DNA from: a virus
Taxonomy: Duplodnaviria > Caudoviricetes
IMG/VR virus record: IMGVR_UViG_3300001525_000522
Location: 26,015 to 90,014 of that record
Length of the DNA stretch: 64,000 nucleotides
Strand: one strand, 5' to 3'
Shown here piece after piece: positions 38,446-54,648 of this stretch (its first letter is position 1; the number at the start of each line of letters is the position of its first letter). The translations under genes were made by a program, and so were the position numbers. Below the pieces are notes generated by a model that saw only the letters and a program-made list of their open reading frames with translations, made no database searches and was not told the DNA's origin.

Positions 38446-38615
38446 TGTATAAATGCGCCAAATGTGGAAAAGAAGTAAAGATAGATGTTGATAAAACCAG
38501 GTATTCTTATGGTTTCATAAAAGGAAAACCATTTATTACTATTTTATGTGATGATTGTAAGAAAATTGTTTCTGAATTAGAGTATAATAAATTGCAGGAA
38601 AAAGGAATTTTATGA
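38445..38615 (+). CDS. Small zinc-finger protein (56 aa, not in the ORF track)
   Basis: MYKCAKCGKE...LCDDCKK; AGGAG RBS; overlaps both neighbours. Confidence 0.7.
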   Translation: MYKCAKCGKEVKIDVDKTRYSYGFIKGKPFITILCDDCKKIVSELEYNKLQEKGIL

Positions 38616-39358
38616 TAAATCTTAATTCTAAAAAAATCATAGAGGAGGTTATGATTCCTCTTTATGACAAAATTTTACAAAATAAAGAGGTAAATGGCAC
38701 AGTAGAATTGATAGGAAAGTCAATTATATTGGATCCTGCTCAATCAGAATTAGCTTATGGTGAATTAAGACCATTTAATCATAAATATGCTAAACAGGAA
38801 GAGGATTGGTATGAGTCTTTGGATCGTTGTATAAAAGGTCATGAAGGCATAGAAAATAACAAAACTTGGAGTTCTATAGCTTCAAAAAATGGAATGGTAA
38901 ATAGCAATTATGGTTATTTGGTTTATGCTAAAAGAACAGGAGGAGAATCACAGTATAACTTTGCATTAGAAAGTTTAATAGATTCTTATAAAGATGGCAA
39001 TTCAGGAAGACAATCAGTAATTTATTATGCTGGGCCTGATATGCATTTAATTTGGAATGACAACATAAATGCTAAACATGATTTTACGTGTACTTTTAAT
39101 ACCCAACATTTTATAAGAGATAATAAGTTAATTTATATAGTAAATCAACGTTCTGCAGATTTAATATTTGGAGTAACATATGATTTTCATCATCATTGCA
39201 GAGTATATCAAAGTTTGATAAAAGACTTAAAAAATAATGGTATAGACATTGAGAATGGTTATATACAAATGAATTTTGGATCATTGCATGTCTATGAAAG
39301 ACATTTTAATTTAATAAAAAATATAGTAGAAACCTTAGTAAATAATTTGGAAGGATAA
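38612..39358 (+). CDS. dCMP hydroxymethylase-like enzyme (thymidylate synthase fold, T4 gp42-like)
   Basis: NSNYG, DFTCT (catalytic Cys), QRSAD, Asp in TYDF (dCMP-type), GSLHVYERHF. Confidence 0.85.
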   Translation: MINLNSKKIIEEVMIPLYDKILQNKEVNGTVELIGKSIILDPAQSELAYGELRPFNHKYAKQEEDWYESLDRCIKGHEGIENNKTWSSIASKNGMVNSNYGYLVYAKRTGGESQYNFALESLIDSYKDGNSGRQSVIYYAGPDMHLIWNDNINAKHDFTCTFNTQHFIRDNKLIYIVNQRSADLIFGVTYDFHHHCRVYQSLIKDLKNNGIDIENGYIQMNFGSLHVYERHFNLIKNIVETLVNNLEG

Positions 39359-39362
39359 AATA

Positions 39363-39566
39363 ATGGCACATAAATATTTTAATAAAATCAGAGAAATAGC
39401 AAGAAATCAAACATCTGAAGATACAAATTTTGTTAAGGATAATGATATAATTAAGGAAACACCTGAGGAGCCTCAGGCTAAGTGCAAGTATACCAGACAT
39501 ATAGATTTGGCTCCATCTATTGCAGAACAGCCTGGAATCATAACTATATCTAAGGAAGAGAATTAA
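39363..39566 (+). CDS. Hypothetical protein
   Basis: GGAAGGA RBS; in operon. Confidence 0.65.
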   Translation: MAHKYFNKIREIARNQTSEDTNFVKDNDIIKETPEEPQAKCKYTRHIDLAPSIAEQPGIITISKEEN

Positions 39567-39567
39567 G

Positions 39568-51817: not shown

Positions 51818-52988
51818 TAAAAATATTTTTAATTTAGTTATAGAAGGCCCAGATGGAGTAGGTAAAACTACGCTTATTAAAGGTCTTTTTAAACATTATA
51901 ATTATAGATACATGTGTTATCATAGAGGAGAGATTTCAAATTATCTTTTTGCAAAGAAATACAACAGAACTTATTATGTAACACAGAAGAATCTTCCATT
52001 TTTATATATAGTCTTAATTGCTTCTGAAGAAGATTTAAAGAAGAGGATACTGGAGAGGTCTAAGATAGAGGGTTGGGTTCAAGATGATTTAGTAGAAGAA
52101 CTATCTAAGATAAATGATGTTAAGGGTTTTAAAGAAGCAGCCGAAACATTTTCTAAGGAGTATGATATAAAGGTATTTGATACTACTGGAAAAACTTCTG
52201 ATGAAACTCTTAAAGAAGTTTGTGAATACTTAGATTCTAGGTATATCTTAGAAGAAAAAGATTCTATAGAGGACTATAGTCAATGGAGTTTAATGTATAA
52301 AGCTGGTTGTGATTTCTTAAATAGGAAATATGAGGTAATTAAAAATCAACCTTATATTGATAATGTTCCAGTTATAACAGAAACTACAATCCATAATGGT
52401 GCATACGAAACTTTTAAAGATAAATCATTTCCGGTAAACTTAATTTTTACTTTAGGTTATGGTAGTACAAATGTTAAAAAATCTAAATTAGTAGATTTCC
52501 AATATATAATAAATAGTAAAATACTTAATAGACCTGAGGTATATGATTATTATAAAGCTATTTCAGATGCAGGATTATCATGCATAACTGCTGACAATGA
52601 TTTAATTCCACATTATAATAACTTTATAAGATGTCAGAGGGTATTTGGAATTGAGTATCTTAATGTAATTTCTAAAGCAAGGGCAACTATATATACTGCT
52701 AGAGAAGTAGAACATATGAAAATTCAAACAGGCAGATTATATGAAGGCATTATAGCTAATAATGTAGTTTTCTTTGATAAAGATTCTGATAAGAATTTCG
52801 ATCAATTGCATAATATTTATAAAGAAGAGGCTGAAAGGTTTATAGAACTGTTAGTGGTTACTCCAGATAATATAATAGAAAAGTATAATAGAATATTCAA
52901 TGATGCTGATTTGGTAGAAGAAATTTTAGATAAGCAGCATAAATATATGAATGGTTTGATTAAGAAGGTTTCGAATGGAAAAATTTGA
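51810..52988 (+). CDS. dNMP kinase-like domain fused to T4 beta-glucosyltransferase-like domain
   Basis: IEGPDGVGKTT P-loop; C-terminal TGRLYE...VFFDKDSD...EILDKQH resembles BGT TLRVWE...MLIDEEFD...EMLSIQH; start after GGAGG. Confidence 0.75.
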   Translation: MHNKNIFNLVIEGPDGVGKTTLIKGLFKHYNYRYMCYHRGEISNYLFAKKYNRTYYVTQKNLPFLYIVLIASEEDLKKRILERSKIEGWVQDDLVEELSKINDVKGFKEAAETFSKEYDIKVFDTTGKTSDETLKEVCEYLDSRYILEEKDSIEDYSQWSLMYKAGCDFLNRKYEVIKNQPYIDNVPVITETTIHNGAYETFKDKSFPVNLIFTLGYGSTNVKKSKLVDFQYIINSKILNRPEVYDYYKAISDAGLSCITADNDLIPHYNNFIRCQRVFGIEYLNVISKARATIYTAREVEHMKIQTGRLYEGIIANNVVFFDKDSDKNFDQLHNIYKEEAERFIELLVVTPDNIIEKYNRIFNDADLVEEILDKQHKYMNGLIKKVSNGKI

Positions 52989-54120
52989 TTTTAATCATAC
53001 TTATGATGTTTTAATAGTTGGATGTGGTTTATACGGCATAACTTTTGCCAGATGTTGTAAGGATGCAGGTTTAGATGTGGCTATAGTAGAAAAGAGACCT
53101 CATATAGGCGGTACTGCATATGATTATGTGGATCTTACAACAGGAATAATAGTTCAGAAGTATGGTGCACATATATTTAGAACTTCTAATGAGCAGGTTT
53201 GGTCATTTGTAAATAAGTATTCTGCTTTTAAGCCATACATTCATGAGGTAAAAGCTAGATATAAAGGTAAATATTATAGTTTGCCATTTAATCTTAATAC
53301 TTGGGAAGAACTCTATGGGTGTAAAACTTCAGAAGAGGCGGAAAAGCTTTTAACTGAAAAGATAAATAAATACTATGTAGGAACTCCAAAAAATTTAGAA
53401 GAACAGGCTTTGAGACTTGTAGGTAAAGAGGTCTATGAGATTTTTATAAAAGGCTACAGTGAAAAACAATGGGGTAGGCCATGTACTGAACTTCCTGCTG
53501 ATACCATGAGAAGGATAAAATTCAGATTTGAGAGGAATAACGACTATTTTTCAGAGAAATATGAAGGCATTCCAATAAATGGTTATACCACCATGTTTGA
53601 AAAGATGCTTGAAGATATTCCAGTATGTTTAAATTATGATTTTAGCTTCTTTGCTAAAGAAATTCCATTATATAAAAAACTTATCTATACTGGTAGAATA
53701 GATGATTATTACTTGAGAACCCAAGGAGATTTGGAATTTAGAACTGTAAAATTTATAGATATTCTTTTTGATAATGATAGCTTTCAACCTACTTCAGTAA
53801 CTAATTACACTGATGCAGATATTCCATATACAAGGACTATTGAGCATAAGAAATTTTTGAACCAACAGAGTGATAAAACTATAGTATCTTTTGAATATCC
53901 TAAAAAATTTGAAGATGGTGATAATCCATTTTATGCAGTGCATACTAAAGAAAACTTAGATAAATATAATAAATATAAGGAATACGCAGATGCAGAATCA
54001 AATGTAAGATTTGGAGGAACTTTAGGTAAATATCAATATAATGACATGCAGGAAACAATTGCTAATGCAATGGCAGATTTTAATGATTTTATAAAAGATT
54101 TTAATAAGGATTGTGTATAA
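52975..54120 (+). CDS. glf: UDP-galactopyranose mutase
   Basis: IVGCGLYG FAD motif, HIGG..YD, KYGAHIFRT, YSEKQWG, YTRTIEHK, GTLGKYQY.DM. Confidence 0.93.
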   Translation: MEKFDFNHTYDVLIVGCGLYGITFARCCKDAGLDVAIVEKRPHIGGTAYDYVDLTTGIIVQKYGAHIFRTSNEQVWSFVNKYSAFKPYIHEVKARYKGKYYSLPFNLNTWEELYGCKTSEEAEKLLTEKINKYYVGTPKNLEEQALRLVGKEVYEIFIKGYSEKQWGRPCTELPADTMRRIKFRFERNNDYFSEKYEGIPINGYTTMFEKMLEDIPVCLNYDFSFFAKEIPLYKKLIYTGRIDDYYLRTQGDLEFRTVKFIDILFDNDSFQPTSVTNYTDADIPYTRTIEHKKFLNQQSDKTIVSFEYPKKFEDGDNPFYAVHTKENLDKYNKYKEYADAESNVRFGGTLGKYQYNDMQETIANAMADFNDFIKDFNKDCV

Positions 54121-54138
54121 TATATTAGAGGTAAAATT

Positions 54139-54648
54139 ATGATAGAGTTTATGAAAGTAAGAGATGTTAAGGATCCTAAAAGAAATTTTGGAGATGCCGG
54201 TATAGATTTATTTATACCCAATCAATCTGAAGAATTGATAAACTATATAAAAGAAAAGAATCCTTCTTGGTTTTGTGATGGAGTAACTTTTATAGATGGT
54301 GGAATTTTATTAGCACCTGGAGCAAATATTTGTATTCCTTCCGGGTTAAAATATAAAATACCCGGAAATGTAGCTTTAATTCAATTTACAAAATCAGGCG
54401 TATGTCTTAAAAAACAATTGGATTGTGCTAATGGTGTAGGTGATTCTACATATCAAGGAGAGTTGCATATCCATTTGAGAAATGAGGGGAAAGTTGATAG
54501 ATTCATTGGATATGGAGAAAAGATAACTCAGTTTGTACCGGTAGTATATGATACATCTGAAATAACTGTTAGAGATTTTGATGAAGAATTTTTTACAGAA
54601 GAAACTGCTAGAGGTTGTGGTGGATTTGGGTCTACTGGAACTGTATAA
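54139..54648 (+). CDS. dut: Trimeric dUTPase-fold nucleotidohydrolase
   Basis: DAGIDL, KSG, GVGDSTYQGE, RGCGGFGSTG. Confidence 0.88.
   Translation: MIEFMKVRDVKDPKRNFGDAGIDLFIPNQSEELINYIKEKNPSWFCDGVTFIDGGILLAPGANICIPSGLKYKIPGNVALIQFTKSGVCLKKQLDCANGVGDSTYQGELHIHLRNEGKVDRFIGYGEKITQFVPVVYDTSEITVRDFDEEFFTEETARGCGGFGSTGTV

Follow-up and report, generated by a model that had tools for sequence, protein, structure and literature searches.

A candidate pathway for furanosyl-5-hydroxymethylcytosine in the DNA of an uncultured phage

Among the ways in which phages protect their DNA from restriction enzymes and CRISPR nucleases, the textbook case is glycosylated 5-hydroxymethylcytosine (5hmC), which also underlies widely used 5hmC-labelling reagents such as the beta-glucosyltransferase (BGT) of phage T4. 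Here we analyze a 64,000-nucleotide stretch of DNA from an uncultured tailed phage, called the window throughout, which spans bases 26015-90014 of the 90,014-bp IMG/VR viral contig IMGVR_UViG_3300001525_000522 (CheckV completeness 79%). The window encodes a thymidylate synthase (TS) homologue, a protein in which a nucleotide kinase is fused to a BGT-like glycosyltransferase (GT), and a UDP-galactopyranose mutase (UGM). The genes suggest that the DNA of this phage very probably carries glycosyl-5hmC. Gene linkage and co-variation further incline us, with less assurance, to the view that the sugar is a mutase-derived furanose, either galactofuranose (Galf) or possibly its N-acetylamino form (GalfNAc).

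The closest described pathway that draws on a mutase is that of Rhizobium phage RL38J1 and other Pootjesviridae, where a phage UGM has been proposed to supply UDP-galactofuranose for galactosyl-5-hydroxycytosine (Lee et al., NAR 2026, PMC13326640). The RL38J1 pathway leads to galactosyl-glucosyl-5-hydroxycytosine and places galactose on a C5-oxygenated cytosine (PMC13326640). The same study assigned the specificity of TS homologues to three positions in E. coli ThyA numbering: N177D selects dCMP, L143D/E accompanies a hydroxymethyl product by way of water access, and D169N singles out the 5-hydroxycytosine synthases, a newly found group (Lee et al., NAR 2026, PMC13326640). Since that paper, a UGM-fed route is conceptually not unprecedented. 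A 2023 preprint survey of viral DNA glycosyltransferases makes no mention of a mutase, a furanose or a kinase, and we found no demonstration of a hexose in furanose form on hydroxymethylcytosine in the literature searched. The genes of the window on which the comparison with these systems turns are the following:

38612..39358, + strand: TS homologue of the dCMP hydroxymethylase (5-hydroxymethyl-dCMP, or 5hmdCMP, synthase) type, by PF00303, PDB entry 1b49 and active-site residues.
51810..52259, + strand: kinase domain of the fusion protein (residues 1-150), a P-loop kinase of the YorR/deoxynucleoside kinase (dNK)/thymidylate kinase (Tmk) type, by structural model and Walker A motif.
52260..52988, + strand: GT domain of the fusion protein (residues 151-392), a T4 BGT-like GT-B fold with a reduced N-terminal half, by structural model.
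52975..54120, + strand: UGM, a GLF-family flavoenzyme, by PF03275, PF13450, 4mo2 and 1i8t, its gene overlapping that of the fusion protein by 14 nt.

The locus resembles that of T4 in its hydroxymethylase, which has the same active-site signature at 33% identity, in its dCMP deaminase, and in a transferase whose fold is nearest to T4 BGT and the T4 alpha-glucosyltransferase (AGT); the T4 BGT gene also adjoins gene 42. It differs in having a YorR/Tmk-type kinase fused to the transferase, where T4 uses the gp1 dNMP kinase, in the partial N-terminal GT-B half of that transferase, in a trimeric dUTPase fold for pool trimming where T4 has a gp56-type dCTPase, and in the UDP-sugar mutase that belongs to the cassette. 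With RL38J1 it shares a phage UGM (39% identity), and in RL38J1 the gene for a Tmk-like 'nucleotide kinase' (gp214) stands beside those for gp215, the first transferase, and gp216, the TS homologue. The RL38J1 base, however, is 5-hydroxycytosine (D169N, ether link, flavin-dependent synthase) while the signature here is that of 5hmC; its transferase is epimerase-like or GT4-like and has no detectable similarity to the fusion GT; its kinase and transferase are separate genes; and its UGM lies ~60 kb from the transferase, whereas the two genes overlap here. When the profile of the fusion family was compared with those of gp215 and gp214 of RL38J1, nothing significant emerged beyond the P-loop. 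The parallel is one of architecture, not of orthology.

Phages RB69 and DLP3 have the shared module of a Tmk/YorR-like kinase, a first transferase and a TS homologue, and the best PDB match of DLP3 gp78 is YorR (3kb2), as it is for the fusion kinase domain. These phages differ from ours in base and transferase family, and in their de novo synthesis of UDP-arabinofuranose via an isomerase, a phosphatase and a kinase/uridylyltransferase, none of which was seen among the open reading frames (ORFs) scanned at 36-64 kb of the window. A further parallel lies in cultured T4-like phages of Aeromonas (Tulanevirus: phiAS4, 25, Aes508, Aes012, AS-gz and others), which have both a TS homologue with the hydroxymethylase signature (RSND...ND) and a GLF protein 34% identical to that of the window. 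Their GLF gene is followed by two ORFs of ~350 aa without a Pfam family (phiAS4 NC_014635.1, L057:5019-8291, L058:1460-2143). They differ from the window in that they have no kinase-GT homologue and that their TS homologue and mutase genes are far apart, but they may provide a cultured test bed for furanosyl-5hmC. The idea that the window holds a new pathway thus stands in part: the 5hmC base, the BGT-like fusion and the overlapping mutase gene set it apart from RL38J1, but UGM-fed glycosylation of cytosine had already been proposed in 2026 (PMC13326640) and kinase-GT genes also occur in genomes without UGM.

We propose a hypermodification of cytosine that has both pre- and post-replicative steps. 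The TS homologue would convert dCMP to 5-hydroxymethyl-dCMP (5hm-dCMP). This nucleotide would be phosphorylated toward 5hm-dCTP by the fusion's kinase domain, for which no rival candidate was found in four complete or near-complete genomes, and the phage polymerase would then build 5hm-dCTP into DNA. By analogy with T4, the dUTPase-fold enzyme, the dCMP deaminase and possibly an HD-like phosphohydrolase would keep the pools of dCTP and dUTP low and supply dUMP for the making of thymidylate. The phage mutase would turn host UDP-galactopyranose or UDP-N-acetylgalactosamine (UDP-GalNAc) into its furanose form, and the BGT-like domain would attach this sugar to 5hmC, at its 5-hydroxymethyl group, within duplex DNA. 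The predicted product, galactofuranosyl-5hmC or GalfNAc-5hmC, would shield the genome against restriction and CRISPR nucleases. The mutase and sugar-transfer steps are proposed because of the linkage of the genes and the co-variation of transferase and mutase types.

The first step of this scheme is consistent with both the overall similarity and the active site of the TS homologue. The protein matches PF00303 (E=1.2e-11, 44.8 bits, cut-off 24.3), and its closest solved structure is T4 dCMP hydroxymethylase (1b49, E=1.7e-28, residues 25-237), with thymidylate synthases reaching only ~1e-7. Its closest relatives among cultured phages are the gene-42 proteins of T4-like phages (33-40% identity). 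An Asp (in 'TYD', aligned with 'RND' of T4) lies in the column of T4 D179, marked by the D179N mutant chain 6l18. The catalytic Cys (T4 C148, E. coli C146) is present in 'DFTCT', aligned with 'DFMCT' of T4, and the Asp three residues ahead of it provides an acidic residue at the position of E. coli L143. The 'QRSAD' motif retains D169, where RL38J1 gp216 has 'RSQN' in the same alignment. The protein is therefore of the 5hmdCMP-synthase type and not of the 5-hydroxy-dCMP (5hodCMP) type, so that of two products initially considered for this locus, hydroxymethyl- and hydroxycytosine, the former is retained and the latter is not (the 5-hydroxycytosine synthases have Asn in place of the Asp kept at ThyA position 169). 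Synthesis of 5hmdCMP from dCMP is a well-supported prediction for this enzyme.

The fusion gene (51810-52988) encodes 392 aa, the same sequence as database protein P0001. We place its start at ATG 51810, which has a GGAGG site upstream, and rejected the alternative TTG at 51714. Homologues of ~380-410 aa fall into more than 100 sequence clusters, all of them metagenomic: among 50,697 phage records, tblastn found no cultured-phage relative of the protein and megablast no cultured-phage match to the gene cluster. Pfam gave no match to the protein outside the P-loop families, and the Tmk/dNK matches of the kinase domain were weak and under the cut-off. An AlphaFold model built on 46 homologues (mean pLDDT 95.5, pTM 0.88) folds residues 5-149 as a P-loop nucleotide kinase, nearest to B. 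subtilis YorR (3kb2, Z 14.3), then deoxyadenosine kinase (2jaq, Z 13.7) and Tmk structures (Z 12-12.6, S. aureus Tmk at 12.6). None of the Walker A residues G13, G18 and K19 varies across the 46 homologues. This domain is the sole Tmk-like match in genomes G000-G004, and a single-sequence search of low sensitivity with RL38J1 gp219 found no gp1-type dNMP kinase in the same set.

In the same model, residues 151-392 are nearest to T4 BGT (VIA-align: 1c3j Z 16.8, root-mean-square deviation 3.6 over 224 residues; 1j39 Z 16.6). The next GT-B family follows at Z 13.3, 3.5 Z lower, and T4 AGT at Z 12.3-12.6; the first four Foldseek matches of the model are all T4 BGT. A family-invariant R309-x-Y311-E312 aligns with the R-V-W-E stretch that binds UDP in BGT, and with R-F-Y-E of a full-length BGT-like protein encoded by a related phage (locus L008). 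About 75 residues ahead of the donor domain are all that the model leaves of the GT-B N-terminal half, which in BGT is the acceptor domain that flips the base and holds the catalytic Asp100, and the kinase fills the rest of that position. Scans with PF09198, the family of T4 BGT (GT63), and with PF00534 found no glycosyltransferase in genomes G000, G001 and G005; the PF09198 blank weighs little since its control matched nowhere.

The family of the mutase is plain from its sequence. It matches PF03275 (E=8.4e-64, 215.5 bits, cut-off 26.3) and the FAD-binding family PF13450 (59.2 bits), and its residues 10-368 align over the full length of the bacterial enzymes (Campylobacter jejuni 4mo2, E=3.6e-100; E. 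coli Glf 1i8t, E=2e-95). Like these (E 1e-95 to 1e-100), it has intact FAD-binding and GLF domains, and it differs from them in being phage-borne and part of a DNA-modification cassette. At two positions that are His and Lys in E. coli Glf, the window UGM shares Arg with 4mo2. These two Arg residues reportedly allow the C. jejuni mutase to use UDP-GalNAc, in which case the pair would hint at GalfNAc instead of Galf. The ORFs scanned at 36-64 kb included no gene for an arabinose-5-phosphate isomerase, a sugar kinase/uridylyltransferase or a phosphatase. Arabinofuranose, originally named beside galactofuranose as the possible sugar, is therefore unsupported, as none of the RB69/DLP3 arabinose genes was seen; the mutase residues would favour Gal or GalNAc.

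These results agree with much of an earlier sequence-only reading of the window. All the genes that it named are present. The T4 gp42-like dCMP hydroxymethylase holds by its match to 1b49 (E=1.7e-28) and its active-site residues, the kinase/BGT-like fusion by structure prediction (YorR Z 14.3, BGT 1c3j Z 16.8), and the UGM by PF03275 and its full-length matches to 4mo2 and 1i8t. The dCMP deaminase, MT-A70 methyltransferase and dUTPase-fold enzyme likewise hold (PF00383, PF05063, PF00692), as does the HD hydrolase by a phrog_28876 match and its His/Asp motifs, its role in the pathway being that of a candidate. The grouping of the genes needs correction. MT-A70, fusion, UGM and dUTPase genes do lie together at 51.2-54.6 kb, but the pathway as a whole is not one contiguous operon: its genes form two blocks, at 38.6-40.8 kb and 51.2-54.6 kb, and the 16-kb span also holds unrelated ligase, SbcCD, RecA and resolvase genes.

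To see how constant the gene set is, we gathered related loci from viral contigs, metagenomes and assemblies, of which ~25 distinct ones have a full-length kinase-GT homologue. A TS homologue lies within 2.5 kb of the kinase-GT gene, and usually abuts it, in 20 of the ~25 loci. Each of the 22 linked TS homologues aligned has Asp at the N177 position along with the D-x-x-C and RSxD motifs, so that it is specifically with dCMP hydroxymethylases that the transferase family is linked. Straight downstream of the kinase-GT gene, and often overlapping it, is a GLF gene in this phage and in L018, L022, L023, L026 and L028; in L041 the distance is 3 kb. The GLF-linked contigs include a 117-kb relative of our phage (L018; 75% and 83% identity), which has the same fusion/UGM gene overlap, a phage of 37 kb whose terminase is of another kind (L022), and contigs of 11 kb (L023) and 63 kb (L026); the mutase-carrying backbones of L022, L026 and L018 are unrelated to one another. 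In L022, L023 and L026 the genes form one compact cassette of deaminase, TS homologue, kinase-GT, mutase and dUTPase/DCD, in which no second transferase was found. A UGM-based search of viral contigs returned two distant loci only.

When 24 kinase-GT proteins were placed in a maximum-likelihood tree, those linked to a UGM formed two subclades within a single clade, a clustering matched by 0 of 500 shuffles. The linkage of the genes exceeds chance, and the expectation that hydroxymethylase, fusion and UGM genes would be found together in related phages proved correct, with a TS homologue within 2.5 kb in 20 of ~25 loci and UGM downstream in six contigs. One additional locus (L010, in the 115-kb genome G005, IMGVR_UViG_3300045988_129138) has a TS homologue 40% identical to ours with the hydroxymethylase signature, a distant kinase-like match, and GLF at a distance of ~18 kb; GLF is therefore associated with 5hmC-type phages outside the kinase-GT family as well.

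The type of transferase and the type of mutase vary together. The complete 113.7-kb genome G001 (IMGVR_UViG_3300045988_157039, with terminal repeats; locus L008:10001-12650) is a close relative of our phage, with flanking genes 70-90% identical and a TS homologue 70% identical. At the site of the fusion and UGM genes it has a stand-alone kinase (53% identity to the kinase domain), a 345-aa protein without a Pfam match, and a GLF protein only 31% identical to that of the window. In its structural model the 345-aa protein resembles T4 BGT over the full length, spanning BGT residues 1-351 (1j39 Z 20.6, 307 residues; T4 AGT Z 17.9), and hhalign identifies it as a homologue of the fusion's C-terminal domain (95.5%, E=1.6e-8). 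Three more homologues of this protein are each followed by GLF and then dUTPase genes. Across the available contexts, the mutase gene overlaps or abuts a transferase gene in at least 10 independent cases, the full-length BGT-like type included.

The active-site type of the mutase also tracks the kinase-GT subclade. When the mutases of L026, L028 and L041 were compared with the window UGM, the clade of this phage had Arg/Arg, as in 4mo2, and the other UGM-linked clade His/Lys or His/Met, the His/Lys type being close to E. coli Glf 1i8t. The two types may correspond to different donor sugars, GalNAc and Gal, respectively. In all, we find three distinct transferase-mutase pairings. The pair is exchanged as a unit between close relatives while kinase, dUTPase and flanks stay, and since the flanks are 70-90% identical and the contents differ, the site is a hot spot of transferase/mutase swapping. 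That the pairs are swapped as a unit is the strongest available argument for a transferase that uses the product of the mutase.

Two of the loci with the full-length transferase have a peculiarity of their own: a 225-241-aa gene with a PemK_toxin Pfam match (L055:5327-6004 and L056:5275-6000) lies just upstream of the BGT-like gene, at the place of MT-A70 and kinase.

Several observations weigh against a furanose on the 5hmC of duplex DNA. Three complete or near-complete genomes of 36-55 kb (G002-G004) have the kinase-GT and TS homologue genes and no GLF. A furanose donor is therefore an accessory to the system, not its defining part, and the transferase family has no intrinsic need of a phage mutase, making a pyranose donor such as UDP-glucose possible. 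The tree requires at least two gains or losses of UGM. The sequence likeness of the fusion GT to T4 BGT is marginal (hhalign E ~0.007), and since only part of the N-terminal (acceptor/DNA) half is kept, the acceptor might not be duplex DNA. The contig is 79% complete, so its missing part could hold further transferases or a gp1-like kinase. Lastly, the phage is uncultured and the pathway is predicted from its genes.

The first of these points bears on the alternative that best survives, a T4-like glucosyl- or galactopyranosyl-5hmC. Here the fusion would use a host pyranose donor, for example UDP-glucose, and the mutase would drain or divert pools of UDP-galactose or of cell-wall precursors, or serve an unrecognised second transferase. 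The kinase-GT homologues of the complete phage genomes that lack GLF are 37-55% identical to the fusion, T4 BGT, the nearest structural relative, uses UDP-glucose, and the presence of UGM is labile on the kinase-GT tree, all of which would fit such a scheme. Nevertheless, it leaves unexplained why the mutase should overlap or abut the transferase in so many independent contexts, including those with a second, full-length BGT-like type, and why the type of mutase should co-vary with the transferase clade. No second transferase was seen in the compact cassettes or the genomes scanned, and phages without UGM may draw on the glf gene of their host. We consider a pyranose unlikely, though it deserves to be taken seriously.

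The truncation of the GT-B N-terminal half bears on a different alternative, in which the DNA is unmodified and the transferase and mutase glycosylate a protein, teichoic acid or other non-DNA acceptor. Many GT-B enzymes of similar fold do act on small molecules or wall polymers, and Streptococcus suis phages have prophage-borne glf genes. This explanation is improbable in view of the near-obligate adjacency to a dCMP hydroxymethylase-type gene, the position of the genes inside a replication and nucleotide-metabolism module, and the fact that the best structural matches are both T4 DNA glucosyltransferases.

The remaining two alternatives were set aside on the active-site residues of the TS homologue. 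Glycosylation of 5-hydroxycytosine through an ether link, as in RB69, DLP3 and RL38J1 and possibly with arabinofuranose, would involve much the same set of parts, namely a Tmk-like kinase and a GT-B transferase beside the TS homologue and, as in RL38J1, a UGM, but D169N is missing from the TS homologue of this phage and from each of the 22 linked ones, whereas RL38J1 gp216 shows it in the same alignment, the best homologue of the TS protein is T4 gp42, and no arabinose-sugar genes turned up among the ORFs scanned, making it very improbable indeed. Least credible of all is a thymidine hypermodification, with 5hmdUMP made by the TS homologue and the kinase domain serving as a 5-hydroxymethyluracil (5hmU) DNA kinase as in 5-HMUDK pathways: the accompanying dCMP deaminase and dUTPase, and the fusion of a P-loop kinase to a group-transfer enzyme, would suit it, but at the position that defines the substrate this enzyme and every linked homologue have Asp, as for cytosine, and not Asn, as for uracil, the kinase belongs to the YorR/dNK/Tmk type, a hydroxyl must be free and not phosphorylated for a glycosyltransferase to use it, and T4 too has a dCMP deaminase.

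A mutase-derived furanose on 5hmC thus remains our preferred reading. A bolder version of it is that the hexofuranose is added by an enzyme of new architecture, in which the dNMP kinase has displaced most of the BGT-like acceptor half and doubles as a pocket for the 5hm-dCMP moiety, either as a flipped-out base or as a free nucleotide, physically coupling phosphorylation and glycosylation; this we regard as doubtful. More generally, the locus points to a large uncharacterised family of putative DNA glycosyltransferases, almost always wired to a dCMP hydroxymethylase, and the paired swap of transferase and mutase within one phage lineage has the look of an arms-race hot spot. If correct, the furanose prediction would widen the range of 5hmC sugars beyond glucose and gentiobiose, would mean that a UGM-fed route arose independently of that of the Pootjesviridae, on a base other than 5-hydroxycytosine and with a different transferase, and could provide new enzymes for the selective tagging of 5hmC.

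The other genes of the window named above, and the module in which they lie, are the following:

40343..40792, + strand: dCMP deaminase (PF00383 E=1.8e-24; phrog_174 E=5.5e-50).
43763..44473, + strand: HD-like metal-dependent phosphohydrolase (phrog_28876 E=1.7e-22; H..H, HD and H..D motifs).
51215..51817, + strand: MT-A70 DNA (adenine) methyltransferase (PF05063 E=1.4e-15; phrog_359 E=1.3e-56).
54139..54648, + strand: trimeric dUTPase-fold enzyme (PF00692 E=1.3e-10; phrog_135).
36-64 kb, + strand: replication, recombination and nucleotide-metabolism module, with a helicase, NAD-dependent ligase, SbcCD, RecA/UvsX, two resolvases, DnaB, a primase and a split family-A polymerase; the fusion and UGM genes sit within it.

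The deaminase ORF is open from TTG 40271, with a likely start at ATG 40343, and in many related cassettes its gene adjoins that of the TS homologue. In the window, a gene for a Cas4/PD-(D/E)XK nuclease (39568-40356) lies between the two. The dUTPase-fold enzyme scores 41.6 bits with PF00692 (cut-off 22) and matches PDB dUTPases down to E=1e-12, the C-terminal RGxGGFGSTG included. All five motifs are recognisable (AGIDL, KSG, GDSTYQGE, KITQ and RGCGGFGSTG), with Lys replacing the usual Arg in II and IV. Its homologues in related cassettes also match the DCD family PF22769, and depletion of dCTP is a possible function for it.

The HD protein gave no Pfam match and no meaningful PDB sequence match. 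It is kept at 69-73% identity in L008 and L018 but does not belong to the compact cassettes. The MT-A70 protein is 83% identical in L008, and its gene is not found at this position in L018. Neither of the two is a conserved member of the cassette, MT-A70 being a neighbour.

The window has a GC content of ~31%, and the host is probably a low-GC bacterium, a further contrast with T4 and RL38J1. Two unlike Holliday-junction-resolvase-like genes, at 40792-41247 and 50859-51218 (phrog_843 and phrog_2002), occur in the one module. Straight after the dUTPase gene come four tRNA genes (Ser-TGA, Thr-TGT, Pro-TGG and Gly-TCC; 54688-56226), with long non-coding spacers between them. The family-A DNA polymerase (60902-64000) is split into an ORF of 489 aa and one of more than 405 aa, with a 126-aa ORF between, and the same split is seen in L018.

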